Below are positions 13,665 to 31,362 of a stretch of 32,000 nt of DNA, one piece after another (position 1 is the stretch's first letter; each line of letters begins with the position of its first letter). Where the stretch lies: contig OY843585.1 of NCBI GenBank assembly GCA_963692945.1, positions 1,140,001 to 1,172,000 of the forward strand, written 5' to 3'. The notes beneath the pieces were generated by a model. The model had not been told where the DNA came from. It searched no databases and worked only from the letters and a program-made list of their open reading frames with translations. A program made the translations under genes and the position numbers. This stretch comes from Bdellovibrionales bacterium (GTDB taxonomy: Bacteria; Bdellovibrionota; Bdellovibrionia; Bdellovibrionales; UBA1609).

Positions 13665-13728
13665 ACTTTTAGTGTATTTAATTACGTTAGAATCTGTTTG
13701 TTCTAAGAGATATTCTTTCTGTAATTCT

Positions 13729-14133
13729 TTAATTGGATTTACTTTTTTTTAAGGGTTTGTTTTCAGAAAGAGCATTTCTAATAAATTTAATCAATGCTTT
13801 AGATCTACCAATACGAATCATATCTTTTGGTGTTCGTTCCCCTAAAAAAGGATTAGGAGTAAAAAACCAACGCATAGTTTTATCTTCATCTTCAAAAAAA
13901 TTAGCAACCAAGTTGATAGCTGTAGCCCATTCCCTCATTCGTTCTTTTAGTTCTTGAGGCATTTTTTCATCGTATCTAATAGAAGATAATTTCACTCCTG
14001 AAGATTGAGAAACTTCTTGTTTTTTTAATTCTAGTATTTTAACAACTGCTTCTCCTTTTACATTTTTCCCTTTAAATAAGGAAAGCCTATCTTTAGGGAG
14101 AGTGAATGCTTTATTTGATTGAAATTGAACCAT
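13729..14133 (-). CDS. Xre/MbcA/ParS-type antitoxin (DUF2384-like toxin-binding domain)
   Basis: C-terminal pattern MRWFFTPNPFLGERTPKDMIRIGRSKALIKFI, typical of RES-partner antitoxins. AAGGAGG SD upstream. Confidence 0.7.
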   Translation of the reverse strand: MVQFQSNKAFTLPKDRLSLFKGKNVKGEAVVKILELKKQEVSQSSGVKLSSIRYDEKMPQELKERMREWATAINLVANFFEDEDKTMRWFFTPNPFLGERTPKDMIRIGRSKALIKFIRNALSENKPLKKSKSN

Positions 14134-14423: not shown

Positions 14424-17400
14424 CTAATATATTTTAGTATTTAACCAATTCTGTATACATTGACATATTTCATCTTGATGAATTGGTAATAAGGCAGTTT
14501 TAGATTTTACTAATTGAATCAAACTATCAGCTATCTTTTTTGGATTTTCAGATCTTCCAAAGGATAATTGATTCAAAGTTTCTTTCACAATGACCTCCTG
14601 ACTAGAAAGTAAGATAGGAGAATTTTGAAATAGATCAATAAAAAAATCTGAAGTGACACAAATAATACTTTGTAAATTTGAAACAGGCCCTAAAAAGAAT
14701 AATCCTCTTTGAAAACCAAAATGGTTAACTCCATATTGTCCTTCTTTTAATAAAAACATAAGTATCTTATGATCTATTGGTATATAAGTTTGATTTAATT
14801 TTACTAATTCAGCTTTAAATTGGATAGACTTATTAACATCAATAATTTGTTGATTTTCAAAATATCTAACCATATCAAATAGTCTAACTCCTAAAGATTC
14901 AAAATCATTTTTAGCAAGTGTTCTAGAAACTTCATCCTCACATAAAAGAATTATGTTTTTTTCTTCTTTAACCACCAATAATGGATCACAAAATTCTTTT
15001 CCCAGAAGTTTCTCCATTTCATTTATTTTTTCTCTGCTTATTATCAATGAATCACTTATTGATTTAATTTGACAATGATCTTTAGCCCATTGTTTCACTT
15101 TTTTAAGGAAGTCTAAATTTTCTACTATTTTTTCTGGTGAAGTGAAAGATTTTTTTGGCTGCTCATTTTCTCCACCAGGAATAAGCATTAATAACCCATC
15201 TTTAGCATGTAATTTCCTACTTTGTATAAGGTTTTCTAAAGAATCTATTGTAGATTGACATATATAAAGATTAAATTTGTTATTACTTCTCTCTAGATAT
15301 TGTTCTAATTTTATTCCATGAAGTGTAATAAGAGATGATAAATCTATTATCAAGTCACTATAATTATTCAAAACTGTAAGAGAGTTATTGTAATCATCTC
15401 TTTCAGGTTGAGAGGATATGAATTTATCTTTCTTAGATCTAGTTAAATATTCAATTACTTCTATAGGATGTTGATTGATAATTTTCGATATAGCTCCAAT
15501 ACCTATTTCTCCTTTTTTATAATATTGAAATACTTGATTATTCCTTTTTTCTATTTGTGAACTATCTGCCATAAATTGTCTCATCGATTGTAATATATCT
15601 TTAGCTGTTGCATTTTTTGTAATAGAGATGGATTTCATAAAATTATTTGAAGGAAAATTTATATTCATATTGCTTGGAATATCCTGATATTTATAAATAT
15701 ATTTACTTTTTATATCTACGATTTTATACTTTTCGTTTCCAATATCAATTACATCTCCCTTCTTTTTTCCTAATAATTTTTTAGATAACTCATGCCCTGG
15801 AGTAAATATATCTGCTGACTCCTCAATAATAATTTCTCTTTCTGTTTGATTATTTATTTCTTTAATTTTTACATAATAATCTAAATCTACTTTATCACTT
15901 TGAAATAAAATAGAATTTTGCTCTTTAATTTGACCATAAACAGTAACCAATTCAAAATATAATCTTTGTGCTTCTAAGCTTGAAGGATGATTCTTGATAT
16001 TTTGATATTGAATTTTTAAAGCTTTTTTAAAATCCCGTATATGTATATAAGCTATTGAAAGATAGTTTATTTGCTTAACAGATAATTGTTCTAAATTAGT
16101 TATAGAATCTAAAAGTTTTTTAGCTTCTATAACTTTTTGTTCCCTTATATAAGCAAAGATTAATTGTAATTTTATTATGCTATTGTCAGGATTTAAATGA
16201 ATAAATTGTTTACAATAATTTATTGCTTTTTTTCTATTTCCTAAAGTTTCATGGACATGAAATAAAACATCAATAGGCTCTATTCTATTAGGAAATTTTT
16301 TGAATAATTGTTTTGCTAACTCTATAGCCTTTTCATTCTTCCCATTTTCAAAATAAACATGTAATAATTTAAATTTTTCAGGGTGATTCATATTGTTTTC
16401 TGTGATTTTTTCTAATAAAGATTCACACATCCTATACATCTTTGAAAAATACAACTCAAGCACAAGTTGTTGAATATCTCTGATATGAACATTATTTTTT
16501 TTAGACAAACTAATTGCTTCTTTAAGATAGTTATTTTTTTGCTCGATATTTTTTTTATGACTCTCAATTTTAGATTTTAAGATTAAAGTTAATATATTGC
16601 CTCTATCATCTTCAAAAAAAGCATCTAATATCTTTTCTGCTTCATTAAAATCTCCAAAATTGATTAATCTAAATATTAAATATCTTTTTGCTTCGATTCT
16701 ATTATCTTGACTTATAGATTCATCAATAATTATTTTTCTTAATAATTTTTTCCCTTTTTCTTTGTTATCTGTAAAAAAATACAAATCTGCTAATTTTAAA
16801 TTCATTTCAAATGTTTTTTCTTTAATTTTTTCTAATATAATAATACTTTCTTCAATTTTTCCTATTACTTCTAAAAATCTACATAACTCTATTTTTAAGT
16901 CTTTATTTTCAGGAAAAATATCAATTCCCTTATTGATAACTTGAATAGCCTTATCTATCTGTCCATTAATTTCAAGAGATATAGCATAATGTATATACCA
17001 ATATGGATGAAACTTTTTTAATTCATCAAAATCTCTATTTGTAGTTAACTTTTTATAAATATCTATAATTTTTTCTAATTCAGGAATTACACTATCTGGA
17101 GCACATCTTGATGTAAATACCTTATATTTCTCTAAAATGATTTGTAAAGACATTTCTGCATATTCAGATTCTACAATATGATCTTTATTTTTACACGAAA
17201 GTTTTAACCATTTTTCAGCTTGCTCATACTGTTTTTTTCTTATACTAATATGAGCTAATGCATGAATCATCCTATCATTTTCTTTCAAGTCTGCTGGAAT
17301 GCTATCAATAATTTCTTCTAAAGTTTTATCCTCTCTATCCTGAATTTGTACATTAATAATGTAAGCATTTATATTTAACGGATTTAATTCTTTAACTTTT

Positions 17401-18227
17401 TCTATATATTGTTTTGCTTTTTCTATATCATTTCTAATTAGATAACCCATAGCACAATTATAATTAGCATCTTCATCTTCTTTATTAAACTGTAATGCAC
17501 CTATCAATAATTTACATCCTTCCATATTTTCATTCATTTTTATTTTTGCACACCCCATATTAGTTATGACTCTATATTTTTCTTTATCATCTAATATATG
17601 CCATTCTTCTGCTTTAAGTTTTTCTAACTGCTTAAAGGCTGTTTGTGGTTTGTTATCTATTAAATCTTTTATTCTGTTAAGTTCAGAATGAGAACTATTA
17701 CTCTTAATTAAGTTTAGATCTAATTCACTATTCAAATTATATTGAACAGCATTATATTTAGATTTTTTTATGAATTTATCAATACCATAAAATTTTTGAT
17801 ATATTGTAGGATGTTTTTCAAATAAATCTTTTATTTCATCCCAACTATGAATTTCTACAGAAAAAAGATCTTGATTTCGATGTTTTTCAGAAATGATTCT
17901 TGCTTCTTTTTGTATATTTGCATCTCTTTTACAAGTTGTTGCTAAAATAAATTTTTTTAAACTAGGGTCAAAATTTTTTGCTTTTTCTACTTCTTTAAGT
18001 AACTCTTCTTTCTTAATTTTTGAGGTAACCTCTCTTTTTTTGCACTGTATTCCTATATCTTGATCTTGCACAAAAATATCCACACCATCTTGAGATTGAC
18101 CTTGTCTTCCATTTATTTGAGTTTGCTCTCCATACTCTGCTTTATATAACTCCAAACATATTTTTTCAAAAAGACCTCCATCACTAGGAGGAGGAATTTG
18201 TAAGTTAAACAAAAAAAAGCCCTTCAT
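14424..18227 (-). CDS. Large multidomain protein: N-terminal Mrr/restriction-endonuclease-like domain, long TPR-like helical repeat array, GreA/B C-terminal-like domain, C-terminal PIN-like domain
   Basis: aa 15-145: GGLFEKICLELY...GQSQDGVDIFV...IGIQCKKRE...FILATTCK (Mrr_cat-like D...QxK pattern). aa ~190-770: repeated helical-hairpin TPR-like units. aa ~778-842: VDLDYYVKIKE...FTPGHELSKKLLGKKKGDVIDIGNEKYKIVDI (GreA/B C-terminal pattern). aa ~955-1125: LIIDLSSLITL ... QSTIDSLE ... ILLCEDEVS (acidic residues spaced as in PIN folds). Confidence 0.75.
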   Translation of the reverse strand: MKGFFLFNLQIPPPSDGGLFEKICLELYKAEYGEQTQINGRQGQSQDGVDIFVQDQDIGIQCKKREVTSKIKKEELLKEVEKAKNFDPSLKKFILATTCKRDANIQKEARIISEKHRNQDLFSVEIHSWDEIKDLFEKHPTIYQKFYGIDKFIKKSKYNAVQYNLNSELDLNLIKSNSSHSELNRIKDLIDNKPQTAFKQLEKLKAEEWHILDDKEKYRVITNMGCAKIKMNENMEGCKLLIGALQFNKEDEDANYNCAMGYLIRNDIEKAKQYIEKVKELNPLNINAYIINVQIQDREDKTLEEIIDSIPADLKENDRMIHALAHISIRKKQYEQAEKWLKLSCKNKDHIVESEYAEMSLQIILEKYKVFTSRCAPDSVIPELEKIIDIYKKLTTNRDFDELKKFHPYWYIHYAISLEINGQIDKAIQVINKGIDIFPENKDLKIELCRFLEVIGKIEESIIILEKIKEKTFEMNLKLADLYFFTDNKEKGKKLLRKIIIDESISQDNRIEAKRYLIFRLINFGDFNEAEKILDAFFEDDRGNILTLILKSKIESHKKNIEQKNNYLKEAISLSKKNNVHIRDIQQLVLELYFSKMYRMCESLLEKITENNMNHPEKFKLLHVYFENGKNEKAIELAKQLFKKFPNRIEPIDVLFHVHETLGNRKKAINYCKQFIHLNPDNSIIKLQLIFAYIREQKVIEAKKLLDSITNLEQLSVKQINYLSIAYIHIRDFKKALKIQYQNIKNHPSSLEAQRLYFELVTVYGQIKEQNSILFQSDKVDLDYYVKIKEINNQTEREIIIEESADIFTPGHELSKKLLGKKKGDVIDIGNEKYKIVDIKSKYIYKYQDIPSNMNINFPSNNFMKSISITKNATAKDILQSMRQFMADSSQIEKRNNQVFQYYKKGEIGIGAISKIINQHPIEVIEYLTRSKKDKFISSQPERDDYNNSLTVLNNYSDLIIDLSSLITLHGIKLEQYLERSNNKFNLYICQSTIDSLENLIQSRKLHAKDGLLMLIPGGENEQPKKSFTSPEKIVENLDFLKKVKQWAKDHCQIKSISDSLIISREKINEMEKLLGKEFCDPLLVVKEEKNIILLCEDEVSRTLAKNDFESLGVRLFDMVRYFENQQIIDVNKSIQFKAELVKLNQTYIPIDHKILMFLLKEGQYGVNHFGFQRGLFFLGPVSNLQSIICVTSDFFIDLFQNSPILLSSQEVIVKETLNQLSFGRSENPKKIADSLIQLVKSKTALLPIHQDEICQCIQNWLNTKIY

Positions 18228-18483: not shown

Positions 18484-18660
18484 TTTTAAGATCATAGGGT
18501 GGTAAGTTGATTGTTTTAAAAGATCTATTCTATTTAAAAAAAATTTAGTTTTTCTAAGTACTTATCATCCTACCGTTCAAAGTTTAAGCTTCATACTTTT
18601 TAATAGTCTCGTATCAATAAAAAAATCTGTTTAAGTTTCATCTGTTTTAAAACTATACTA
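18484..18660 (+). repeat. Intergenic repeat family, copy A
   Basis: ttttaagatcatagggtggtaagttgattgttttaaaagatctattctatttaaaaaaaatttagtttttctaagtacttatcatcctaccgttcaaagtttaagcttcatactttttaa aligns by eye along ~125 bp with 24768-24902 and with the reverse complement of 31114-31262. Confidence 0.65.
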
Positions 18661-18770: not shown

Positions 18771-18806
18771 TTGATTTTACAAGAGAATTACTGTATAAAT
18801 GAAGTT

Positions 18807-19700
18807 ATGAAAAAACAATTACTTACAACCAAACAAAAGCTTTCTGCTTTATTTGCTTCTGGTGATTTTATAAGAATCGACGATGCTAAAAATATACTAA
18901 GACTATCAAGGGTTCAAACTTCTAAAACTCTATCAAAATGGGCAAAACAAGGTTGGTTGAGGCGAATCGCTTCTGGTGTTTATATACCTGTTCCTCTTGG
19001 TATTGGTGATGATGAGCAAGTTCTAGATGATCCTTGGGTTGTAATACCTGAATTATTTCCAACTTATTATATTGGAGGTTTATCAGCAGCTTCTTATTGG
19101 GAACTCACAGAACAAATTTTTAAAAATACTTTTGTTTTTACAACAAAAGCTGTTAGGTCTAACACTACTCTTATACAAGATAATACATTTATTATAAAAA
19201 ATATTAACCAACGAAAAATATTTGGTACAGAACAAATATGGAGAGGAAGAAGAAAAATTTTTATATCAGATGTTTATAAAACTTTAATTGATATGTTAGA
19301 TGACCCTTCTGTTGGAGGAGGCATTCAGCATGTCTCTTATTGTTTTGATACTTTGATAAAATTAGATTTTAAAAAGAGGCAAGGACATAGATTGTTATCA
19401 CGAAAAAGAAGTGAACTAAAAAATGGAAGATCTCTGGAATATGATGATTTAAAAGAGTCTAGACAAAAAAAAGATTTTGAAAAATTAATCACTTACTCTA
19501 AGAGGATTAATAACGGCAGTGTTTTTAAAAGGCTTGGTTTTCTTGCAGATCAAAATCCTCAATCTAGAAATCTAGCTATGGAGTGTGAAAAATATTTAAC
19601 TAAAGGATATGCTAAACTAGATCCTTCTATAAAATGTGATAAGCTTATAACAAAATGGCGATTATGGATTCCAAGTTTCTGGTTTAAAAAGAATTTATGA
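18807..19700 (+). CDS. abiEi: AbiEi-family antitoxin / transcriptional regulator (type IV TA)
   Basis: N-terminal wHTH-like segment (ILRLSRVQTSKTLSKWAKQGWLRRIASGVYIPVP). Gene order and a 4-nt overlap with an AbiEii-type NTase gene. The track ORF starts at TTG 18771; I prefer ATG 18807 (MKKQLL...). Confidence 0.7.
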   Translation: MKKQLLTTKQKLSALFASGDFIRIDDAKNILRLSRVQTSKTLSKWAKQGWLRRIASGVYIPVPLGIGDDEQVLDDPWVVIPELFPTYYIGGLSAASYWELTEQIFKNTFVFTTKAVRSNTTLIQDNTFIIKNINQRKIFGTEQIWRGRRKIFISDVYKTLIDMLDDPSVGGGIQHVSYCFDTLIKLDFKKRQGHRLLSRKRSELKNGRSLEYDDLKESRQKKDFEKLITYSKRINNGSVFKRLGFLADQNPQSRNLAMECEKYLTKGYAKLDPSIKCDKLITKWRLWIPSFWFKKNL

Positions 19701-20875
19701 TTACAAAACAAGAAATAAGAAATAGAGCTTCTATAACATCATTATATCCTCATGTTATTGAAAAAAATTATGCTTTAGCTTGGTTACTAAATGGAATTTT
19801 TAATCATAAAGAGCTTAAAGATAAATGGATATTTAAAGGTGGAACTTGTATAAAGAAATGCTACTTTGAAACTTATCGTTTTTCGGAGGATTTAGATTTT
19901 ACTTTGAAAGATAATACTCATTTTGAAGTAAGTTTTCTAAAAAATACATTTAATGATATTTCACATTGGATTGAAAAAATATCAGGCCTCTCTTTTCCAT
20001 CTGAATCCCATACATTTGAGATTGTTACCAAACAAAACGGTCAGGTAAGTGTTGAAGGAAAAATTGCTTATTCAGGCCCAGTATCTCCTCAAATTGGATT
20101 GCCAAAAATAAAACTAGATCTTACAGCGGATGAACTAATTATTTTACCTCCTGTTCAAAAACAAGTCTCTCATCCATATTCAGATCGCCCAAAAGCTGGC
20201 ATTCAGATTATGTCTTATGCTTATGAAGAGATTTTTGCAGAAAAAATTAGAGCTCTTGCTCAAAGAGCAAATCCTCGTGATCTTTATGATGTGGTCAATC
20301 TCTATAGAAATCCAAATGCAACATCAGATATATCTTTATTAAAAGATATTCTTAGGCAGAAATGTGAATATAAAAATATTTCAATTCCAAAGCTAAAAGA
20401 TGTCATGAGTAATAAAGATAAAATAAATGCTTCATGGAAGGCTATGTTAAATCATCAGCTTTCTTATTTACCTCCCGTAGAGGGTTATTGGAAATCTCTA
20501 TCTAATTTCTTTCATTGGATAGGAGGTAATGTAAAAAATGAAAAAACATCTATTCAACTAAAACAAAATGAAATTTTAGTTACAGAACAAACCCTTAACC
20601 TTCCTTTAGAACAAATAAAAATAAAAACTTTTGTTGAGAAAATTCGTTTTGCTTCTACAAATCATCTTTGTGTAAAAATTAAATATGAAGATTCAGAGCA
20701 TCTCATTGAGGCTTATGCTTTAAGCAAAAAAGAAGGAGTGCATTTTATTTTATACACTTGGAATCTTACAAAAGAACAAATTTGCACTTACCTTATAACA
20801 CGAATAAAATCTTGTGAGATAACAGATCAATCTTTTAACCCTAGATATAAAATAGATATAATACCAAAGATTTAA
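19697..20875 (+). CDS. abiEii: AbiEii/AbiGii-family nucleotidyltransferase toxin with a C-terminal WYL-like extension
   Basis: FKGGTCIKKCYFETYRFSEDLDF and EEIFAEKIRALAQRANPRDLYD match the AbiEii (DUF1814) NTase pattern. The extra ~100 aa at the C-terminus (VKIKYEDSEHLIEAYAL..FILYTWN...TYLITRIKSCEIT) are discussed in findings. Confidence 0.75.
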   Translation: MITKQEIRNRASITSLYPHVIEKNYALAWLLNGIFNHKELKDKWIFKGGTCIKKCYFETYRFSEDLDFTLKDNTHFEVSFLKNTFNDISHWIEKISGLSFPSESHTFEIVTKQNGQVSVEGKIAYSGPVSPQIGLPKIKLDLTADELIILPPVQKQVSHPYSDRPKAGIQIMSYAYEEIFAEKIRALAQRANPRDLYDVVNLYRNPNATSDISLLKDILRQKCEYKNISIPKLKDVMSNKDKINASWKAMLNHQLSYLPPVEGYWKSLSNFFHWIGGNVKNEKTSIQLKQNEILVTEQTLNLPLEQIKIKTFVEKIRFASTNHLCVKIKYEDSEHLIEAYALSKKEGVHFILYTWNLTKEQICTYLITRIKSCEITDQSFNPRYKIDIIPKI

Positions 20876-20898: not shown

Positions 20899-22887
20899 TC
20901 ACTTCCATAACTCGCTTTCTGTTTTGTATTTACCACTATAAACAGCATGGTAAGCCGAGGGGATATCTATAGGCTTCACAGGTAAACCTTTAAACTTTCC
21001 GGTTTTAAAAACCTTGATTCCTTTTTTAGAAAGACTAACACTTTGTTTAGCATATTCATTCCAACCCTTTTGAGACCAACATCTCTTATCAAGTGACTTT
21101 TTTAAAAATCTTTTAAATTCAAAAAAGGATCTGTATTTTGCCTTTATCAAAGAGAGATTTCCTGTTCCTAAAAAACAACCAAAACCCTCAAAGTCTTTTC
21201 TATAAGTTTTATCAACAGCAACAGGAATGTCTATAGGCTTCACAGGTAAACCCTTAAACTTTCCTACAGGTAATCTCGGCAAACCCTTAAACCTACCACT
21301 CTTAAAAACCGACAAACCTCCCACAGCACCCTTAGAACCCAACACAGCACCCCTCAAGCCAGAAACACCCTTAACACCAGAAGCACCTCTCACAACACCC
21401 CTCAAACCAGAAACACCCTTAACTCCAAAAGAGCCAGAAGCACCCTTAACTCCAGAAACACCCCTCAAGCCAGAAGCACCCTTAACTCCAGAAGAACCAG
21501 AAGCACCCTTAACTCCAAAAGAGCCAGAAGCACCTCTCACAGCACCACTCAAACCAGAAGCCCCCTTAACTCCAGAAAAACCAAAAGAACCCAAAGAACC
21601 CCCCAAAGAACCAAAAGAACCAACAACAGCCCAAACTTCCAAAGAAACTCTACAATACTCTTTCCACTCCACTTGACCCTTAAGGTTTAAACTTTGAACA
21701 AATTTTTTAGCCTCAACATAAGATCTATAATTTCTTTTGCGAGTTGGAATATTTCCACTTCCTAAAAAATCCCCCCAACTAAAGTTTTCATTCCTAAAGT
21801 TTTTATAATGATGATAGACAGCCCTTGGTATATCAACGGGACGCAAAGGGAGTCCTTTAAACTTCCCTTTATCAATAACCAACCGACTTCCTTTAAACTT
21901 CCCTCTACCAGTAACCAACCGACTTCCTTTAAACTTCCCTTTATCAATAACCAACCGATTTCTTTTTCTTGCCAGATCTGAATCTCTACAATAATCCCTC
22001 CACTCAAACTGATTTTTTAAATGAAGGTTTTTTACAAACAAGCATGCCTTTTTATAACTTCTATAAGAAAGGGGTTCTCGCTTTGGTTGAACAAAAAGTA
22101 AAAAGAAACTCCAACCTCTCCACTGACTTTGATAAATCTTTTGAGGGTGGTCAGGAATGTTTGTAGGTTTAACTTTTAATCCTTTAAACTTCCCTTTTTT
22201 AAAAACCTTTAAACTCTCATATTTTTTAGAAACTTCACAATACTCTTTATAAGTCTTCTTCGAATCAATGAAAACATGATGTTCATTCAATCTTCTCACC
22301 CATTTGTAAGCTATAGAAAAAGAACAATATTTTTTTTGATAAGGAGCCAGATGCTTAGAGTCTAAAAAATCCCTGTAGCCCTTCCATTCCTTTTTATAAA
22401 CGGCGTAGGGATCAAATGGAACTTTTCCTGTTGGAAATTTTGGGAGCAAGACTTGCCCATGACAGATTTCACCTTTAGCCCAGAGTTCAAATTCTTTTTT
22501 ACTTCCAAGTTTTAGTTTTCTAACATAAGCCCTTGCTTTTTTATAAGACCAAAAACCTTTTGACCTTTGATGAGGTGAAAAATGATTTGTCCCTAAAAAA
22601 TCCCCCCAACCCTTCCACTCTTTTTTATAAACAGAGTGAACAGACGAGGGTATGTCTTTTGGCTTTTTATTAGATTTAGCCCAACAAATAAACTCCCCTC
22701 TATTCTTAAACTTTTTAGATTGAATATACTTTTTAGCTTCCAAAAAACTTTTGTAGCGTAAAGATACAACATCTAATTTCTTACTAGACTTAACTAAGAC
22801 AATAGATGCTTTTTTATTCTTAAACTTTTTAGCTTGAATGTATTTTCTAGATTCTGAAAAACTTTTATAACTTTTTTGGTAAGGCAT
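20899..22887 (-). CDS. Repeat protein built from integrase-repeat-like modules with a central Gly-X-Y (collagen-like) segment
   Basis: At least 5 modules of the type YRSY.EAKKFV..L.LK...EW.EYC....GKFKGLPVKP.DIP....VYK.EWKGWGDFLG. aa 421-526 are Gly-rich with long runs of G-X-Y triplets. Confidence 0.7.
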   Translation of the reverse strand: MPYQKSYKSFSESRKYIQAKKFKNKKASIVLVKSSKKLDVVSLRYKSFLEAKKYIQSKKFKNRGEFICWAKSNKKPKDIPSSVHSVYKKEWKGWGDFLGTNHFSPHQRSKGFWSYKKARAYVRKLKLGSKKEFELWAKGEICHGQVLLPKFPTGKVPFDPYAVYKKEWKGYRDFLDSKHLAPYQKKYCSFSIAYKWVRRLNEHHVFIDSKKTYKEYCEVSKKYESLKVFKKGKFKGLKVKPTNIPDHPQKIYQSQWRGWSFFLLFVQPKREPLSYRSYKKACLFVKNLHLKNQFEWRDYCRDSDLARKRNRLVIDKGKFKGSRLVTGRGKFKGSRLVIDKGKFKGLPLRPVDIPRAVYHHYKNFRNENFSWGDFLGSGNIPTRKRNYRSYVEAKKFVQSLNLKGQVEWKEYCRVSLEVWAVVGSFGSLGGSLGSFGFSGVKGASGLSGAVRGASGSFGVKGASGSSGVKGASGLRGVSGVKGASGSFGVKGVSGLRGVVRGASGVKGVSGLRGAVLGSKGAVGGLSVFKSGRFKGLPRLPVGKFKGLPVKPIDIPVAVDKTYRKDFEGFGCFLGTGNLSLIKAKYRSFFEFKRFLKKSLDKRCWSQKGWNEYAKQSVSLSKKGIKVFKTGKFKGLPVKPIDIPSAYHAVYSGKYKTESELWK

Positions 22888-23070
22888 GTTGAACTATTCA
22901 CTATCTATGCAAGCGACACTTTGCTTGGATATATTTCTTAGCTTTTGAAAAACTTTTGTAACTTTTTTGGTAAGGCATGTTGAACTATTCACTATCTACA
23001 AGATACACTTTGCTTGAATGTATTTCTTAGCTTTTGAAAAACTTTTGTAACTTTTTTGGTAAGGCATTTT
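22888..23070 (-). repeat. Two extra tandem ~90-bp copies of the 5' end of gene 20899..22887
   Basis: atgccttaccaaaaaagtta.aaaagtttttc starts (minus strand) at 22887, 22978 and 23067. The upstream copies encode MPYQKSYKSFSKAKKYIQAKC.. and then hit stops. Confidence 0.8.
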
Positions 23071-23916
23071 TTAGTAAGCTCCACTAAAAGCCGAAGTATG
23101 ATCTGAGTCACATAAACCATAACCTACTGAAAAAAACCAACGCTTTGTAAAACCAACTTTATCACCTATTAGGAATCCTCTTTGATCAGCTGAGGCTCTC
23201 CAATGAGGTTGTCCAGTAGAATATTTAGGACTTTTTGTGTGTGTAATAGAAATACACACTACTCCTCTACCGATATCAGCTACTCCTGTGCATACGAGTC
23301 CATCTTTATATGACTGACCTGATGAAAAAGTCTTGCCAGAACTAACTGCGTGAAATATTGATGAGTAAGACTGCCTTGTTCTAACTCTATATAGACCATA
23401 ATTATCACATTTAAAACCTAACTTTTGAAAAGAGTTACAACCCCTTACCCCGTTTAATGCTAAACAATTCTGTATGGCTTTACTTGCGTTGATTGTAGAG
23501 ATTTTTATTACTCTTTTTACAGCGCTTTCTTGATATTTATTATACGCAGTTATCACAATAGAAGCTAATAGTCCTAAAATTCCAACTACGATTAAAACTT
23601 CTATAAAAGAAAATCCTTTTTTATTTTTACTTAGTTTTTTCTCCTCTGCTTTCAATTCTTTTATGGAGTAATCTTCATATTTTCTATAAGTTTCTTTGCT
23701 TAGCTCGCTACAGTTTCTAAGTCCTTTACCTGTTTCAATAGATTTATAATTCCTACATTTCATTTTTATACTATCTAAAGAACAAGTAAAACTTTCATCA
23801 TTCTTTTTTAAATTTTTACAAAGCTGGTCTCTATGAAGAACATTTTCTCTATAAATTATAAAGACTTTTAGCTCATGTAGATTTGTCCATTTCATTCTTG
23901 TTTTTCTTTTACTCAT
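23071..23916 (-). CDS. Pilin-like protein with a prepilin-type motif ~100 aa from the annotated N-terminus
   Basis: KKG|FSFIEVLIVVGILGLLASIVITAYNKYQESA at aa 99-130. No in-frame ATG lies close to the motif. An in-frame TTG at 23653-23655 would give a normal 14-aa leader (MKAEEKKLSKNKKG). Confidence 0.65.
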   Translation of the reverse strand: MSKRKTRMKWTNLHELKVFIIYRENVLHRDQLCKNLKKNDESFTCSLDSIKMKCRNYKSIETGKGLRNCSELSKETYRKYEDYSIKELKAEEKKLSKNKKGFSFIEVLIVVGILGLLASIVITAYNKYQESAVKRVIKISTINASKAIQNCLALNGVRGCNSFQKLGFKCDNYGLYRVRTRQSYSSIFHAVSSGKTFSSGQSYKDGLVCTGVADIGRGVVCISITHTKSPKYSTGQPHWRASADQRGFLIGDKVGFTKRWFFSVGYGLCDSDHTSAFSGAY

Positions 23917-24656: not shown

Positions 24657-24767
24657 ACGACCTCCTTATTGATAACAAATAGATAGAAATACAATTATAT
24701 CTATACCGATATATTCTCATTTAAGAAAAACTAAAAGGCAATTTTTTGATTGAAAAAGTCGGTTTTT

Positions 24768-24902
24768 AAGATTTTAGGCTAGTGAATGGATTACTTTAAA
24801 AGATAGATTTTTATTTAAAAAGCTAGTGTTTTTAAGCATTTATTGACTTACTGTTCATAATTTAATCTCTTTTAAAAAGATATTCTCAAAATGAAACACT
24901 GC
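24768..24902 (+). repeat. Intergenic repeat family, copy B
   Basis: tttaagattttaggctagtgaatggattactttaaaagatagatttttatttaaaaagctagtgtttttaagcatttattgacttactgttcataatttaatctcttttaaaaagatattctcaaaatgaaacact. It ends 5 nt from the XRE gene stop codon. Confidence 0.65.
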
Positions 24903-24907
24903 TTTAA

Positions 24908-25189
24908 TTATTTGATCTTTTTCAGGTCTATTTTTTTGCTTTGAAGCATCAAAGGACTAACATTTAAAGCCTTTGAAATAGCTGTTATGGTTCCAACCCT
25001 CAAATCCTTTATTCTTCTTTGCTCAATATCTGCAATGGTAGTCAAAGATAGGTTAGATTTTTTAGCCACATCTAGTTGGGTATAGCCCCTATATTTTCTA
25101 ACAAGTTCCATGTTGATAGAAAAGTTTGAAATAATCCTTTTAAGCTCCAAGTCTTCTATCACTATATCTTCAGGTTTTAATCGTGCCAT
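24908..25189 (-). CDS. XRE-family helix-turn-helix transcriptional regulator
   Basis: 93 aa. HTH_3 pattern RKYRGYTQLDVAKKSNLSLTTIADIEQRR. Confidence 0.75.
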   Translation of the reverse strand: MARLKPEDIVIEDLELKRIISNFSINMELVRKYRGYTQLDVAKKSNLSLTTIADIEQRRIKDLRVGTITAISKALNVSPLMLQSKKIDLKKIK

Positions 25190-25427
25190 AACTAGAAAAT
25201 AATACTTTTTTCTACTTATTAAATATGGAAATACCCCTTGTTGATAAAATGGCTATATTCTAAGAAATAGGAGTTTAAAGTATCAAAAAACAACCCTGCC
25301 TATACCAGAAGAAGCAAATGGTAAAGATACAATCTACAAAATTTTTGAAAAAACCTACATATATTAAAAATTTAGATTAGTAAATTGATTGTTTTAAAAG
25401 ATATATTTTATTTAAAAAATACAAAAA

Positions 25428-27161
25428 TTACTTCAAAAATCTTTTTGGGAAACTTATAGGAAATTGATGTCCTTCAAGATAAAAAGATATAGCCTTTTCT
25501 TCTTGATCAGGGAAAATTTGAGCAAAATTTCTTTTTGAGATGTAGAAGATATTTCTAGCAAAAAGTTTTTTCTCGTCATTACAATTTCTTAACTCCATTT
25601 CTGAGGTGGTAGTCGTAAGTCCTAACACAGATTTAGGCATAGGGCTGTAAGATATAGGTGAAGATACGATTTGTAGCATTTGCAATGCAGAGCCTTTCCT
25701 AGTGTCAACAATTTCAGTTAACCCTCCTGCATGAATATCACCACTTAAAATAAAAATCTCTTTTCCTTTTCTTGCTAGTTCTGTCAGAACCTCCATTATT
25801 TCATTTAAAGACTTCCTATTTGAATCAGAGCTTAGTCCATCTTCCATATCATCACTTAACTCAGGTAGTTCAGGTATGGCTGCAATGCCTTTAGGAATGT
25901 ATGAAAGTATAATCAGTATGAGTATAATAGAACCAATGATAGGAAGCAGTATAACAAAGATAAAATAGAGTATAGAAAAAATGGGAATTGGTATTTTTCC
26001 GCATAAACTACAATTAAGAATTGATACTAGTAATGGGCTAAGAAAACATAAAGCAGATATAGGCAACCATAGTTTCCATTTTTGAATTACATACCAAGGC
26101 TTATTTTTCTCAACATCCGTTTTAAGTTTGAATATGAATCTAAAAAGTTCAGATATTCTTTTATCACCAAGAAAATTAGTTCTAAAAGCTACAACGGGAC
26201 TTACAAAAAAGATTTTTTTAATATGATCTGGAGTTTGTTTTAAGTTATCCAATATTTTGTTTTTGTGTTCTTCTGTCCATATTTGATTTTTAGATGAATT
26301 TCTTTCTGATCTAAAATCAGCCAATACAAACTTCATATCTCCCCAGTTTAAAATAGAAGAAAATTTATGAATTGGTTTTGGATTTCTAGAAGCTTGATAA
26401 ATTTTAAAGGATTCTTTTGCAGTTTCAAAAAACTTCCACCAATTCTTTTTAAACCCTGATTCTTCTTTAGAGTTGAAAGACTCAAGACGACTTCCCCAAC
26501 CATCCGTTATATCATGGTCATCCCACATAGTTACACTTAGTGTAGAAGCTAAAACTTTTCTATAACTAATATTTCCCCAATATTTTTGATATTGTTCAAT
26601 AAATCTTTCCTGTAGAGATTTTTTAATTTCACCATCTGCATCTTCTTGTTTAAGTTTATTTATAAATTCTTTTTCAATATCATCATTATAGATTTGATCC
26701 CCTCCTAAAACGAGAAGTCTAACATTTTTATCTTTTTTTAAATGTTCAGAAAGTTTTCTCCACATTTCCCAACCTTCACCAGCACTTCCATTTTTTTGCT
26801 TAAAAGGATTATGGCAACTCATAAGTATAAAAGATTTTTCAATATCATTTTTTCCTAAAATTTGAAAACGACAATCTTCTTCTGTTAAACCTCCCTCTAA
26901 GTCTAAAGATTGTCCATTAGATAAAAATTTGTATTTATATAATCTATTATCTTCTAAATTTTCAAATTTAAAACTAAACAATCTATAAAGTTCATTTTTC
27001 ACCTGTGATTCTTTAGAATCAATTTTTTTATCTTCATATAAAATCTGACATTCTATTTTTTCTATTTCAGATTTGTGTGGAAGAGCAATAAATACCTCAA
27101 CTCCTGTTTCACCATGAGGTCCCAAAAACGGCCCAATTATTTTAACTTTATTTTTATTCAT
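25428..27161 (-). CDS. PhoD-like metallophosphatase interrupted by a transmembrane insertion
   Basis: Motifs in order: LMSCHNPF, VLGGDQIYNDD, MWDDHDITDGWGS, ILSGDIHAGG. aa ~362-424 are strongly hydrophobic (LWLPISALCFLSPLLVSILNCSL ... IPIPIFSILYFIFVILLPIIGSIILILIILSYI). ATGA overlap with the upstream gene. Confidence 0.7.
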   Translation of the reverse strand: MNKNKVKIIGPFLGPHGETGVEVFIALPHKSEIEKIECQILYEDKKIDSKESQVKNELYRLFSFKFENLEDNRLYKYKFLSNGQSLDLEGGLTEEDCRFQILGKNDIEKSFILMSCHNPFKQKNGSAGEGWEMWRKLSEHLKKDKNVRLLVLGGDQIYNDDIEKEFINKLKQEDADGEIKKSLQERFIEQYQKYWGNISYRKVLASTLSVTMWDDHDITDGWGSRLESFNSKEESGFKKNWWKFFETAKESFKIYQASRNPKPIHKFSSILNWGDMKFVLADFRSERNSSKNQIWTEEHKNKILDNLKQTPDHIKKIFFVSPVVAFRTNFLGDKRISELFRFIFKLKTDVEKNKPWYVIQKWKLWLPISALCFLSPLLVSILNCSLCGKIPIPIFSILYFIFVILLPIIGSIILILIILSYIPKGIAAIPELPELSDDMEDGLSSDSNRKSLNEIMEVLTELARKGKEIFILSGDIHAGGLTEIVDTRKGSALQMLQIVSSPISYSPMPKSVLGLTTTTSEMELRNCNDEKKLFARNIFYISKRNFAQIFPDQEEKAISFYLEGHQFPISFPKRFLK

Positions 27162-27793
27162 TTTTTAAACTCCTGTTCAAATTCTACATAAAAATCAATA
27201 AGTGAGTTATATACAGCTTTGTTTTCTCTTTGAAAATCAGAAAGCGTTTGATGATTAAAACATGAGTAGCCTTCTCTGTAATACCTTTCATAACAGACCT
27301 TTAGTTTATTAAACATTTTTTCAAATCTTTTATTTATTTTTTTGAGATCCTTTTCTATTTTAGGTTTACTTTTTTTATTTTTAATATCTTCTTTTTCAAT
27401 AGCATTGTCTTGAATATAACTTAAGGTGTCTTTATAGCTCTTTTTCCAATCTTTGAATAATTTTTTTAAATTTTTAAATTCAGATTCGACATCTGTTTCT
27501 TCTTTAAATTTTCTGTTTTTATATAATTTTTTTAAAGTTCTATAGAAAAGATCATATGAGATAGAAAGTTTTATTGATGATCCTATATTGTTATTTTGTA
27601 ATAACGAAAGATTTAAAGTCTTTATAATATGAGATGAAGTAACATTATTTATTGATGTTAAAATTGGAATATTGAAACATTTAATTATGAAAACACCAAG
27701 AAATCCTACTATACATAATCCAATAAAATTACCAACACCTTTTTCTATAATACTCTTATATAAAAAATTATTAGTAAATCGTTCCATTTTCAA
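27158..27793 (-). CDS. Membrane-anchored Lys-rich helical protein (hypothetical)
   Basis: One N-terminal TM segment (VGNFIGLCIVGFLGVFIIKCF), then a charged helical region. The track start is TTG 27793; ATG at 27787 is an alternative. Either start lies at or within a few nt of the upstream gene's stop codon (27790-27792). Confidence 0.6.
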   Translation of the reverse strand: MKMERFTNNFLYKSIIEKGVGNFIGLCIVGFLGVFIIKCFNIPILTSINNVTSSHIIKTLNLSLLQNNNIGSSIKLSISYDLFYRTLKKLYKNRKFKEETDVESEFKNLKKLFKDWKKSYKDTLSYIQDNAIEKEDIKNKKSKPKIEKDLKKINKRFEKMFNKLKVCYERYYREGYSCFNHQTLSDFQRENKAVYNSLIDFYVEFEQEFKK

Positions 27794-28488
27794 CTTAAAT
27801 CATTTCCTTTTTTTTGTTCACTACTTCTACTGCCAAAATAAAAACCAATTACAGCTCCAGATAAACTTCCAAAGCCAGTCAAAACAGTACTTAGTTTGTC
27901 ACTACTTATACAGTTACTCAAAAGACCAAATATAAGAGCCATAAGAAAAGAACCGATGATTGAAATAGCTATCATTCCTCTTATAGAACCTTCGGGTAAA
28001 CCAAGTCCTTTTAATTTTGGAATATCACTTCCATTTTTTATATACTTAAAAAATAATAAAGATATAATAGGATATCCTATGAGTATGACTAATAAAAATG
28101 CTAAATAGTATCCATATAAATTATCTTCGCATTGAGATAATTTATCTTGGGTTTCTCCAAAAGCTGACCATGTAAAAAGGAAAAAGTTTAAAAAAGAAAT
28201 CTTTAGCAACATATATCTACTTATTATGTTTGAGATTTTCAATTTTTTCTTATTAGCTTTTCTATTATATAAACAATCAATTGTTTTATGAAGTCTATAG
28301 ATTTGATCATACTCTGTTACAGACTCCTTTAACTCATCAAACAGTTTTTTAAATTCCTTTTCTGTATCCACTTTCCCACCTTTATTTGTTTTGAAATTTT
28401 TTTGATGAAATTTAGCAACCTTATCTATCAACCTATCTCTTGAATCTTGCCAAGTCTTTTGAAAACTGTTTCTCATTTGTTTATCCAT
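27790..28488 (-). CDS. Polytopic membrane protein (hypothetical), ~95-aa cytoplasmic helical N-terminus plus ~4 TM segments
   Basis: Hydrophobic segments YMLLKISFLNFFLFTWSAF, YYLAFLLVILIGYPIISLLFF, GMIAISIIGSFLMALIFGLL and LTGFGSLSGAVIGFYFG (glycine-zipper-like). First gene of a three-gene operon. Confidence 0.6.
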   Translation of the reverse strand: MDKQMRNSFQKTWQDSRDRLIDKVAKFHQKNFKTNKGGKVDTEKEFKKLFDELKESVTEYDQIYRLHKTIDCLYNRKANKKKLKISNIISRYMLLKISFLNFFLFTWSAFGETQDKLSQCEDNLYGYYLAFLLVILIGYPIISLLFFKYIKNGSDIPKLKGLGLPEGSIRGMIAISIIGSFLMALIFGLLSNCISSDKLSTVLTGFGSLSGAVIGFYFGSRSSEQKKGNDLS

Positions 28489-28729
28489 AATGAATTATAA
28501 ATCTATGAGATTTTATTTAAACAATCAAGCAAAAACATAGATTGCTCTATAAAAATATTTTAAACTTTTTTAACACTGATCATTTTTTGTTCATGTCTCA
28601 AATTGAGAGTTTTTTATTATGCAAGAAACAACTGTTTTTAAAAAAATAAGAATTTTTTTTAAATTTTCAAAGATACATCTGATAATCTTAGTGAGTCGGT
28701 TTTTTAACAAATAACAAAGGAGTGAACAC

Positions 28730-28968: not shown

Positions 28969-31113
28969 ATGAAAATCACTTTAAAAAATGTTGCAAGTTG
29001 TGATGAAAATCCTGTAATCCTTGAAACAGATCAAAAAATCAATTTAGCTTATGGTTTAAATGGAACAGGAAAAACAACACTTTCTGATTATCTCTACTAT
29101 AAAGATCAAAGTAAAGATAAGTTTAATGATTGTGATTTAACAGATACTGGAAACGCAAAGATATTAGTTTATAATCAAAATTTTATAAAAGATAATTTTT
29201 ATGATAAAGATAGTCTCAAAGGAATTTTTACATTATCTAAAGAAAATAAAGAAGCAGAAGAGTCAATAAAACAAGCTGAACAAAATATAAAAAAATTTGA
29301 AGAAGAGAAAACAAAAAAAGAAAAAGACAAAGAAGAATATGAAAAAAATCAAAAAATAAATTTAGAAGAAATTCAAAAAGCTATTTGGAGTATAAAAACA
29401 GATTATACAGGTGGCGATAGAGTTCTAGAGTTTTGTTTGATTAGCTTAATGGGGAAGAAAGAAAAACTATTCAATCATATTAAAAGCATTCAAAAATCAG
29501 AAAATCAACCAACATCAATAGAAGTACTAAAAAAAGAAGCTCGACTGATCAAAGAAGGTGAGCCACAAGAGACACTACCAAAAATTAAGATGAATATAAA
29601 AGATATTGAAGAAAACAGTATTTGGAAGGAAGTTATAGTAGGTAAAGAAGACAGCCCTGTTGCAAATCTTATTACAAAACTAAATAACTCTGATTGGGTT
29701 AAGCAAGGGGTAAATTATTTATCAATAAGTGAGGAGCAATGTCCATTTTGTCAGGAAAAAACTATTACTGAAACAGTAGCAAAAAATATCAAAGATTATT
29801 TTGATGAAACTTATGAAAATAAAATTACAGAAATTGAGTCATTATACAATCAGTACAAAGATAAACAAATATTAATACCAAAAATAAGCAAATACCAAAA
29901 CCATCCTTTAATAGAACAAGATAAAGATAGGATTGAAATCCTCTATAATAAATTAGTTACAACTTTGAATGATAATCTTTCAAGTATAAAACAAAAATCA
30001 GAGAATTCAAGTCAAAAAATAGAAATTAAAGAAACAAAAGATGAAATTACAGAAATTAATAATTTTATTGAAAAAATTAATCAAGATATCGCAATATATA
30101 ATGAAAAATTAAAAAATAAAGATCAAACCCAAAAAAAAATAAAAAATCAATTTTGGCAAATTATGCGTTGGAATTATGACAATGCACTAATTCAGCATGA
30201 AAAAAATAAAGATAAAACTGAGAAAAAAATAGAAGAAATAAACAATGAGATAACAGGTATTAACAAAAAAATATCTCTTCAAAAAGAAAATATAAAACAA
30301 CAACAAGAAAATATGATCAATATTGAAGGGGCAATAAATAATATCAATAATGGATTGAGAGAATTAGGAATTGAAGGATTCAATATAATAAAATTTCAGG
30401 AAAATTCATATAAAATTGTGAGAGAGGGTCAGGAAGAAGGACAGTTTCAAACTCTCAGTGAAGGTGAAAAGATGATTATAAGTTTTCTCTATTTTATGGA
30501 ATTATGCAAAGGAAAAGAAAGTAAGGAAGAAGTAGTAAAAAATAAAATTGTGGTGATTGATGATCCAATATCAAGCTTATCACATACTTATATTTTTAAT
30601 CTCAGTATTTGGATAAAAAACCATTTTTTTAAATCAGAAAATTATAAACAGATTTTGGTATTAACTCACAGCTTGTATTTTTTTCACGAACTCATAAGAT
30701 ACGATAAAAATAGAAAACTTTTTCGTTTTCTAAAACTATCAACAAATAAAATTCAAATTGAAAAAATGGAAGAAAATGAAATAAAAAATGAATACGAATC
30801 ATACTGGCAAGTTATTAAAGACCATGAAAATGGCAAAGCATCAAATGGATTGCTTGCAAATAGCATGAGGAACATACTTGAACATTTCTTTGGTTTTATA
30901 TATAAAGAAGGACTAGAAAAAAAATTAGAGTCCTTAGGTAAGGATAATAAATTCGAATCTTTTCTAAGGTATATGAATAGGGAATCTCATTCAGATGCTA
31001 TAAATATCACTGATGACAAAGAAATAGATTCAAAACTTTTTAAAGATGCTTTTAAAGAAGTATTTACTAAGTCTGGCTATGAAGAACACTATAAAAATAT
31101 GATGAAAACTTAA
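28969..31113 (+). CDS. RloC/PrrC-like AAA_13 ATPase (candidate anticodon nuclease)
   Basis: Walker A GLNGTGKTT. Long coiled-coil insertion containing CPFCQEK (zinc-hook-like CxxC). ABC signature LSEGEKM. Walker B IVVIDDPISSL. The C-terminal SMRNILEHFFGF ... NRESHSD resembles the Arg/Glu/His nuclease motifs of PrrC/RloC. Confidence 0.6.
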   Translation: MKITLKNVASCDENPVILETDQKINLAYGLNGTGKTTLSDYLYYKDQSKDKFNDCDLTDTGNAKILVYNQNFIKDNFYDKDSLKGIFTLSKENKEAEESIKQAEQNIKKFEEEKTKKEKDKEEYEKNQKINLEEIQKAIWSIKTDYTGGDRVLEFCLISLMGKKEKLFNHIKSIQKSENQPTSIEVLKKEARLIKEGEPQETLPKIKMNIKDIEENSIWKEVIVGKEDSPVANLITKLNNSDWVKQGVNYLSISEEQCPFCQEKTITETVAKNIKDYFDETYENKITEIESLYNQYKDKQILIPKISKYQNHPLIEQDKDRIEILYNKLVTTLNDNLSSIKQKSENSSQKIEIKETKDEITEINNFIEKINQDIAIYNEKLKNKDQTQKKIKNQFWQIMRWNYDNALIQHEKNKDKTEKKIEEINNEITGINKKISLQKENIKQQQENMINIEGAINNINNGLRELGIEGFNIIKFQENSYKIVREGQEEGQFQTLSEGEKMIISFLYFMELCKGKESKEEVVKNKIVVIDDPISSLSHTYIFNLSIWIKNHFFKSENYKQILVLTHSLYFFHELIRYDKNRKLFRFLKLSTNKIQIEKMEENEIKNEYESYWQVIKDHENGKASNGLLANSMRNILEHFFGFIYKEGLEKKLESLGKDNKFESFLRYMNRESHSDAINITDDKEIDSKLFKDAFKEVFTKSGYEEHYKNMMKT

Positions 31114-31262
31114 AAGTGTTTCATTTTGAGAATTTCTTTTTAAAAGAGCTTAAGCTTTGAACGATAGAATAATAACTGTTTAAAAACACTGGCTTTTTTT
31201 AAACAATTAAATCACTATCCTAAGACCTTAAACTATCCTTTTTTTAAAACAAAATCTTACTT
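31114..31262 (-). repeat. Intergenic repeat family, copy C (inverted relative to A and B)
   Basis: aagtgtttcattttgagaatttcttttaaaagagcttaagctttgaacgatag... is the reverse complement counterpart of 24768-24902. It starts directly after the RloC-like stop codon. Confidence 0.65.
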
Positions 31263-31362
31263 ATTTATTTTTCTTAACTAAGGATATGTCAATATGATGT
31301 ATAATAGCATATGTCTAGTTAAGGATAACTAGTTTTTTAACAAATAACATAGGAGTAAAATT

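Follow-up and report, generated by a model that had tools for sequence, protein, structure and literature searches.

A PhoD-like protein with a predicted membrane hairpin is a candidate defense enzyme in a bacterial island operon

Three tightly packed minus-strand genes, here called g1, g2 and g3, lie in a 32,000-nucleotide stretch of a Bdellovibrionales genome (contig OY843585.1 of assembly GCA_963692945.1, forward-strand positions 1,140,001 to 1,172,000). We refer to this whole stretch as the window and use its own numbering, with position 1 as its first letter. The last gene, g3, encodes a PhoD-type metallophosphatase that lacks an export signal and carries a hydrophobic two-helix hairpin, and its closest relatives recur among known defense genes in other genomes. 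A reading of the DNA made from the sequence alone (the sequence-only reading) had proposed the trio as a membrane-associated system; because the trio is not conserved elsewhere, the object of interest narrows to g3 alone, which we regard as a candidate new defense enzyme. Our favored interpretation, to which we assign a probability of roughly 0.4, is that the locus is a lineage-specific, membrane-acting operon in which g3 would be a self-sufficient, membrane-tethered, cytoplasm-facing effector phosphodiesterase of defense islands, and g1 and g2 would be recruited accessories.

The assignment of g3 to the PhoD type, which the sequence-only reading had made from motifs, holds by profile, motif and fold. 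The protein passes the Pfam threshold for PhoD (PF09423; E value of 1.3e-14, 54.5 bits, cutoff of 27) and for PhoD_2 (PF19050; 28.3 bits, cutoff of 22), and it scores below the threshold for the calcineurin-like family (PF00149; 15.1 bits, cutoff of 21.5). We found 242 homologues of g3, and an AlphaFold2 (AF2) model that took 58 homologues as input reached a predicted local distance difference test (pLDDT) score of 90.9 and a predicted template modeling (pTM) score of 0.88. The model contains an N-terminal β-sandwich and a metallophosphatase core. Its top match in a Foldseek search was PhoD (2yeq_A; E value of 6.9e-14, TM-score of 0.51 to 0.56), with purple acid phosphatases next. When the g3 family profile was aligned with 2yeq (E value of 2.2e-5), the SC, GDxxY, WDDH and GDxH motifs coincided. 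In g3, these motifs read SC(H) (C116), GGDQxYxD (D155 and Y158), WDDHD (D214 to D217) and SGDIH (D475 and H477), and all of these numbered residues are invariant in the 58 homologues; D437, D438 and D441 are invariant in the family too. In PhoD, the aligned segments supply Cys and Tyr to the Fe3+ site and Asp/Asn to the Ca2+ sites as ligands (PMC4223295). Because the ligand motifs are kept and align to these metal-site segments, g3 is, judging from sequence and model, very probably an active PhoD-type phosphodiesterase or phosphatase. Enzymes of this family act on teichoic acid and phospholipid, and they include the phospholipase D of Streptomyces chromofuscus (PMC4223295).

The sequence-only reading was right about the PhoD motifs and missed the hydrophobic hairpin that g3 itself carries. 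By sequence, the N-terminus of g3, MNKNKVKIIGPFLGP, has neither a twin-arginine motif nor a hydrophobic signal, and thus shows no signal for the twin-arginine translocation (Tat) or Sec pathway. No signal peptide was seen in any aligned homologue, and the IGPFLG start is kept across the family alignment. The hairpin is a hydrophobic insertion of about 70 residues (approximately amino acids [aa] 362 to 430), modeled as two long helices (approximately 362 to 386 and 392 to 427), that separates the conserved SPVV..R.N strand from the invariant DD..D motif. It was seen in the 18 best-scoring loci, the window included, and more distant relatives that lack it, among them a Pseudomonas aeruginosa megaplasmid group, are soluble and signal-less. 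Since two membrane helices combined with the lack of a signal peptide would place both halves of the catalytic fold in the cytoplasm, g3 is probably membrane-anchored with a cytoplasmic catalytic domain. In every sequence and fold test that we applied, g3 agrees with the PhoD family, and it departs from the classical members in its lack of an export signal. Because of this combination, g3 would define, within a known enzyme family, a new subfamily that is cytoplasmic and inserted in the membrane.

Two further observations concern this family. At the predicted periplasmic tip of the hairpin, g3 has a CxxC motif (NCSLCG; aa 379 to 387, window positions 26001 to 26027) that is kept in the closest relatives (as CSLCD, CNICE, CNVCD or CTEC) and not in distant ones. 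The megaplasmid group is exemplified by a soluble, signal-less, distant PhoD-like protein with 29% identity on pPA30_1 (NZ_CP104871.1; L198, 6635 to 8215), whose gene lies between an IS3 transposase, a phospholipase D (PLD)-like gene and an integrase. Proteins of this type occur in 98 plasmid records from Pseudomonas, most of them megaplasmids of P. aeruginosa.

The proposed role in defense comes from the neighborhoods of g3 and its relatives. We assembled approximately 170 loci with g3 relatives from one-genome-per-species contigs, Joint Genome Institute (JGI) metagenomes and exact look-ups of the closest proteins. Nine of these loci (L001, L002, L167, L168, L169, L170, L171, L172/L173 and L174) carry close relatives with 49 to 66% identity. 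In the window and in 9/9 close-relative loci, the gene lies among known defense, toxin-antitoxin or mobile genes, as called with Pfam and PADLOC (Table 1). A phosphate-regulon setting, which the sequence-only reading had named as evidence against its own proposal, was not seen in any close-relative context: no pstS, phoU or phoB gene was called in the window or in the nine contexts. Neither IMG/VR viral contigs nor GenBank phage records contained a g3 relative, no PHROG family matched, and our literature search found no paper connecting PhoD with defense islands.

Immediate neighbors of the close relatives differ from locus to locus. Upstream of the g3 relative in L001 lies an ATGA-coupled, 72-aa SNase-like fragment (7786 to 8004) that is unrelated to g2, and L168 retains a C-terminal remnant of a fragment of this type (6861 to 7001). 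No gene is called upstream in L167, L169, L170, L172 and L174, with only about 590 bp of upstream sequence in L167 and L174. In L171, a KAP NTPase gene lies 148 bp upstream and a 461-aa uncharacterized protein is encoded downstream. A gene for an Endonuclease_NS protein with a signal peptide is located 24 bp downstream of the g3 relative in L169 (8843 to 9844) and in L172/L173 (8822 to 9823). Because relatives at this level of identity occur in defense islands mostly without a conserved partner, g3 is probably self-sufficient.

We searched for g1 and g2 in all open reading frames (ORFs) and in the DNA of the same loci, using phmmer, jackhmmer and tblastn. None of the approximately 170 loci has a g1 homologue beside the PhoD-like gene, and one (L002) has a g2 homologue there. 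The earlier idea of a conserved three-gene system therefore fails on co-occurrence, an outcome that the sequence-only reading had itself named as refuting it. Because the partners up- and downstream of close g3 relatives vary or are absent, the trio is a singleton, lineage-specific arrangement, and only g3 is a recurrent genetic unit; g2 and g3 may go back to an older pairing that survived in two instances. The statement that the trio matches no named defense system stands, as PADLOC-DB v2.0 gave zero families at an E value of ≤1 for g1, g2 or g3.

Within the window, the sequence confirms the compact layout that had been described for the trio. The stop codon of g1 (TGA, 27792 to 27790) is followed by AA and then by the g2 ATG at 27787, which leaves a 2-nt spacer, while an alternative g2 start, TTG 27793, overlaps the g1 stop. 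The ATGA overlap of g2 and g3 (Table 1) indicates, as read from the sequence, translational coupling, and an AGGAG motif (27174 to 27170) lies 8 nt 5′ of the g3 ATG. Since each of the three ORFs has homologues elsewhere, all are genuine genes. A consensus scan placed a promoter-like site, TTTAAA-16-TATAAT, on the minus strand at 28521 to 28494, where it ends 6 nt 5′ of the g1 ATG. This site is weak evidence, because promoter-like sites in the region are not above shuffled expectation; the counts from the consensus scan for promoters and terminators as a whole did not exceed that expectation.

By hydropathy, g1 has an N-terminal helical head of about 80 to 90 aa followed by four predicted transmembrane (TM) helices, in agreement with the architecture first proposed for it; its AF2 model is all-helical and of low confidence (pLDDT of 67.5, pTM of 0.33). 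The last two helices (aa 160 to 223; LKGLGLPEGSIRGM...GAVIGFYFGSR) are a conserved two-TM (2-TM) holin-like module. Taken together, aa 160 to 232 comprise this pair of helices, with a predicted N-in/C-in topology, and a C-terminal tail that is charged, and the whole 232-aa protein has the head and the other TM helices in addition. Homologues (n = 12 by word search) match the C-terminal half only; their conserved core consists of LKGLGLPEGSxR followed by two TM helices with a short loop between them, the second of which ends in GAVIGFYFGSR. Among 1.84 billion representative proteins, a profile search returned 1,394 clusters with the module at an E value of ≤1e-3, and almost all of these are stand-alone proteins of 100 to 230 aa. 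No Pfam family was found for g1 or for the clusters of its module, and domain fusions of the module were uninformative. Matches of g1 to PHROGs were marginal (E value of 0.001 or weaker) and to families of unknown function.

The g1 module was also found on 19 viral contigs, as 2-TM proteins of 55 to 105 aa with a charged tail. A hidden Markov model (HMM) of these proteins matched g1 with an E value of 3.9e-14 (hhalign probability of 98.9%), so that the membrane-effector character once proposed for g1 now finds a counterpart in the homology of its last two helices to a phage 2-TM holin-like family. Because the viral gene adjoins endolysin-type genes in L178, L196 and L180, and weakly in L186 (Table 1), its products are, from gene order, a candidate new holin family. 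The viral proteins (L178 to L197, from IMG/VR) share the signature (E/K)PLGLPxGS(V/I)RA...GFYFGSR. In two viral contigs (L175/L179 and L176/L185), a gene for a calcineurin-like metallophosphoesterase is located two genes away from the one for the 2-TM protein. We rejected a link between Metallophos proteins and the 2-TM family as chance, with 2/111 neighbor proteins being Metallophos across approximately 18 viral loci. Outside viruses, a 131-aa protein with the g1 module is encoded in an integrase-bearing element (L085, 5321 to 10764). Downstream of its gene come, in turn, a 66-aa ORF and the genes of an 807-aa SMC_N/AAA_23 ATPase and a 415-aa TIR_2 protein, so that the module may have a further defense-type context here.

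The second protein, g2, is single-pass and Lys/Glu-rich, as had been read earlier: hydropathy and charge indicate one N-terminal TM segment (aa 19 to 48) preceded by positive charges and followed by approximately 160 aa of Lys/Glu-rich helix, for which we predict an N-in/C-out topology. A sequence echo between g2 and the head of g1, which had also been claimed, was not significant by BLASTP (E value of 0.09 to 0.17). The sole g2 homologue is encoded in L002 by a gene of 230 aa that precedes the PhoD-like gene by 9 bp (30.5% identity over 203 aa; tblastn E value of 2.7e-14, phmmer E value of 3.6e-16), while a word-based search with g2 returned g2 alone and nothing was above threshold in Pfam, PADLOC or PHROGs. 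By eye, C167 and C180 in the predicted periplasmic domain of g2 have counterparts in the matching region of the homologue. A spanin identity was considered and rejected: the TM-plus-helix architecture is compatible with one, but no ORF with the lipobox of an o-spanin was found on the operon strand, and no PHROG matched.

For the topology, the substrate, the defense role and the interplay of the three proteins, we infer the following arrangement. The hairpin would pin g3 to the inner membrane on its cytoplasmic side and, being placed between conserved motifs that are probably near the catalytic center, would keep the active site close to the bilayer. There, g3 would hydrolyze a phosphodiester substrate as a membrane-proximal effector. 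One candidate substrate is the head groups of inner-leaflet phospholipids, by comparison with the S. chromofuscus phospholipase D, and another is a nucleotide such as NAD+, by comparison with MisA of the Metis system. The contribution of g1 would be a holin-like 2-TM module governed by the cytoplasmic helical head. That of g2, which is single-pass and common to one other g3 locus, would be a helical domain that contains Cys residues and is probably periplasmic. Both may be locally recruited accessories, serving membrane permeabilization and regulation or scaffolding, and not defining parts. A more novel proposal, which we consider rather unlikely, makes this hairpin-bearing, cytoplasm-facing PhoD-like enzyme a new stand-alone anti-phage effector, the first of the PhoD family to act in immunity, which is wired here to a holin-like g1 pore and a g2 envelope sensor. 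Under that proposal, g3 would work at the membrane upon infection, cleaving phospholipids of the inner leaflet or an essential nucleotide, and the periplasm-exposed g2 could sense the perturbation of the envelope as the phage enters.

The main rival of the recruited-accessory reading, in our view somewhat unlikely, would make g3 a membrane-bound phosphodiesterase of metabolism or the envelope, for the remodeling or scavenging of phospholipids or of products of nucleic-acid breakdown. On this view, g1 and g2 would be unrelated, co-transcribed small membrane proteins, and location in the island would mark the gene merely as accessory cargo. This would parallel PlcP-type lipid remodeling and phosphate scavenging by PhoD together with a nuclease. 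Prey digestion is another possibility in predatory Bdellovibrionota-like bacteria, and the wider g3 family is indeed frequent in predatory groups (Bdellovibrio, Bacteriovorax, Halobacteriovorax, Micavibrio and Myxococcota). Several findings favor this rival and weigh against a defense enzyme. Distant hairpin-bearing relatives (38 to 46% identity) occur in ordinary, housekeeping contexts, with AraC, PhyH and NadA neighbors in L003/L004, a hybrid histidine kinase in L005 and a PQQ β-propeller gene in L087. On two soil metagenome contigs, a gene for the phosphatidate phosphatase APP1 (PF09949; E value of 3e-46; L088, 32 to 625; L089, 693 to 1763) precedes, at a distance of 12 bp, that of a PhoD-like homologue with the hairpin and 46% identity. 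This pairing hints at a phospholipid substrate, itself among the known substrates of the PhoD family along with teichoic acid (PMC4223295), and it would suit a pathway of two steps in which phospholipid is converted to phosphatidate and this to diacylglycerol. The secreted nucleases downstream in L169 and L172/L173 fit scavenging, and the SNase-like remnants upstream in L001 and L168 are consistent with it. Scavenging PhoD enzymes, however, use Tat, and because g3 has no export signal whereas the neighboring nucleases are secreted, enzyme and nucleases would reside in different compartments. Moreover, Pho-regulon genes were called in 0/10 close contexts (the window and the nine loci), known defense or toxin-antitoxin genes were present in all ten, and the position of g3 varies between genomes, as expected of mobile cargo.

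That the three genes are unrelated island cargo in one transcript, with no joint function and with g3 perhaps toxin-like or selfish, appears improbable. Such an origin would account for a g1 module that is spread over approximately 1,400 clusters and many contexts (L085, for example), for a g2 that is nearly an orphan, and for a g3 that is mostly found without either. Yet the ATGA overlap and the 2-nt spacer point to co-translation, all three products are membrane proteins, and a g2 homologue recurs directly upstream of the g3 relative in L002 despite 50% g3 identity, which argues for a real g2-g3 link. Least likely is a remnant or derivative of a phage lysis cassette, with g1 as the holin, g2 as an i-spanin-like protein in which a periplasmic coiled coil follows the N-terminal TM segment, and g3 as an unusual envelope-degrading enzyme. 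The homology of the g1 C-terminal module to phage 2-TM proteins beside endolysins suggests it, as do the N-in/C-out topology, long helical domain and paired Cys residues of g2. It conflicts with the lack of g3 relatives in phage collections, with an N-terminus of g3 that is neither a signal nor of the signal-anchor-release (SAR) type, and with a 232-aa g1 whose extra head and two extra TM helices are unlike a minimal holin; the window, in addition, contains no phage structural genes and no peptidoglycan hydrolase, and no o-spanin lipobox ORF was found. The recruited-accessory reading has difficulties of its own. One is that the role in defense would follow by guilt by association, strong as this is, from ten contexts, with no PADLOC match. 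All ten contexts come from one lineage of low-GC metagenome-assembled genomes, whose nearest named genomes are Bdellovibrionota. The topology is a prediction from hydropathy and sequence features, and endolysin adjacency, seen in only 3 to 4 of approximately 18 viral loci (binomial P of approximately 0.002 to 0.06), is a modest enrichment.

If g3 is a defense effector, it would bring into bacterial immunity the PhoD branch of the metallophosphatases, so far seen as exported phosphate-scavenging enzymes, and it would be a membrane-tethered enzyme with a directly testable substrate, either lipid or nucleotide. If g3 is instead a scavenger of lipid or nucleic acid, it would still belong to an undescribed cytoplasmic, membrane-inserted PhoD subfamily, of ordinary interest. 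The work on g1 reveals a 2-TM family of approximately 1,400 clusters, without a Pfam model or functional annotation, that is common to phage genes in holin positions and to bacterial island genes.

The remainder of the window agrees with the island setting that had been proposed. From about 11.2 kb onward, it is a defense and toxin-antitoxin island by Pfam and PADLOC, carrying RES-Xre, TPR-PIN, AbiEi/AbiEii, pilin-like genes, an XRE gene, the trio, and a small ORF with a PDC-S06/PrrC-like ATPase (Table 1). The two neighbors named by the sequence-only reading, an XRE regulator and an RloC-like gene, are both present, as an XRE helix-turn-helix (HTH) gene adjoining the trio on the g3 side and as an AAA_13 protein that matches PADLOC PDC-S06 (E value of 3e-237) and has weak similarity to PrrC. 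No RNA families were found in the window.

Repeated sequences link several parts of the island. An AT-rich intergenic element occurs in four copies, of which the third lies directly downstream of the g3 stop codon. It has a 56-nt core that extends to 99 nt in two copies, these forming an inverted pair around the block from XRE to PDC-S06. Each copy precedes the next gene in the same orientation by approximately 100 to 230 bp, and the genes concerned are the small ORF before TPR-PIN, a pilin-like gene, the XRE gene and a 93-aa ORF. From this arrangement, the element may be a regulatory site common to these genes, and perhaps the operator that the XRE protein binds. A terminator or structured RNA was rejected, as fold z-scores of -1.1 to +0.2 gave no stable fold. 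A near-identical 28-nt leader, GTTTTTTAACAAATAACA[A/T]AGGAGT[G/A]AA, occurs at 28699 to 28726 and at 31332 to 31359, directly before the plus-strand 63-aa ORF at 28730, which precedes PDC-S06, and before the 93-aa ORF at 31363; successive island modules thus appear to share one 5′ cassette. The region from 20899 to 23087 contains a 662-aa minus-strand ORF with a local rise in GC to 0.40 and many internal direct repeats, comprising 36-nt tandem units and a collagen-like region rich in Pro, Glu and Lys. Three 79-nt tandem repeats (22829 to 23087) come after this ORF and reach the start of the pilin-like gene.

Table 1. Features of the window and gene contexts of the loci compared with it
Locus	Feature	Position	Strand	Description
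Window	g1	27790-28488	minus	ORF, 232 aa; 228 aa if the start is ATG 28476
Window	g2	27158-27793	minus	ORF, 211 aa from TTG 27793, 209 aa from ATG 27787
Window	g3	25428-27161	minus	ORF, 577 aa
Window	g2/g3 ATGA overlap	27158-27161	minus	g2 TGA 27160-27158 and g3 ATG 27161-27159, read from the sequence
Window	Divergent intergenic region	28489-28729		between g1 and the plus-strand 63-aa ORF/PDC-S06 module, from the sequence
Window	RES toxin and Xre/MbcA-type antitoxin	12834-14133		island cargo
Window	1,267-aa TPR protein with PIN domain	14424-18227		TPR-GreAB-C-PIN type, island cargo
Window	AbiEi/AbiEii	18771-20875		island cargo
Window	XRE HTH gene	24908-25189		adjoins the trio
Window	AAA_13 protein, PDC-S06	28969-31113		PrrC-like ATPase
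Window	Repeated AT-rich intergenic element, four copies	18486-18541, 24766-24900, 25364-25419, 31115-31213		repeat search, alignment
L001	Context of g3 relative			PDC-M47A/PD-T4-4_A ATPase, SocA, RmuC, SLATT and ThsB-like TIR
L002	Context of g3 relative			MmeI-type restriction-modification gene, DUF1016, HKD-Snf2, SLFN/AlbA
L167	Context of g3 relative			ThsB, AAA and S8 protease, transposase
L168	Context of g3 relative			SIR2 and HerA, KAP NTPase, transposases
L169	Context of g3 relative			AAA and S8 protease
L170	Context of g3 relative			SocA (SocA/Panacea), Dcm methylase, AAA_14/DUF4143, IS66, M78 peptidase
L171	Context of g3 relative			PD-Lambda-1, PDC-S20, D12 methyltransferase
L172/L173	Context of g3 relative			CBASS (SMODS, HORMA, AAA), BrxR, ThsB, DUF4238
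L174	Context of g3 relative			Zeta toxin, Fic, RES
L178	Neighbor of viral 2-TM gene			Amidase_2 endolysin, directly beside
L196	Neighbor of viral 2-TM gene			Peptidase_M15_4, directly beside
L180	Neighbor of viral 2-TM gene			Peptidase_M23, directly beside
L186	Neighbor of viral 2-TM gene			weak CHAP match, directly beside

Comparison with characterized proteins places g3 closest to PhoD of Bacillus subtilis (PDB code 2YEQ), with which it shares the β-sandwich, the metallophosphatase core and the SC, GDxxY, WDDH(D/E) and GD(I/V)H motifs. It differs from this structure in having only about 10% identity in the structural alignment and in lacking the capping C-terminal helix described for PhoD (PMC4223295). 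Unlike classical PhoD enzymes, moreover, it has a membrane hairpin of about 70 residues and no Tat/Sec signal, and it is found in defense islands rather than in Pho regulons. The C-terminal module of g1, being homologous to phage 2-TM proteins, is reminiscent of class II holins and pinholins (2-TM, N-in/C-in). The g1 protein differs from class II holins in that it carries an additional head, about 90 aa long, and two further TM helices, and there is no endolysin nearby in the window; the phage 2-TM family itself has no functional annotation in PHROGs or Pfam. The neighboring PDC-S06 gene resembles the PrrC-RloC-type ABC-ATPase anticodon nucleases, with an Rx4H motif (RNILEH) recognized by eye. 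Unlike a part of the operon, it is divergent, has its own small upstream ORF and does not lie beside g3 homologues in the other loci examined.

Among known defense proteins, MisA of the Metis system is a metallophosphatase that cleaves NAD+ to NMN and AMP (bioRxiv 10.1101/2025.11.05.686725), and the DefensePredictor systems DS-8 and DS-9 have metallophosphatase domains that are essential for defense (PMC13092281). Because the Pfam family and partner domains differ, g3 does not belong to Metis, DS-8 or DS-9: those proteins are calcineurin-like (PF00149), whereas g3 scores below the PF00149 threshold, is membrane-anchored by prediction and has neither a PUA-like sensor nor a NACHT domain, and its operon has no HAD gene. 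What g3 shares with MisA, DS-8 and DS-9 is the metallophosphatase superfamily, and these systems thus provide a precedent for a defense effector of this kind.

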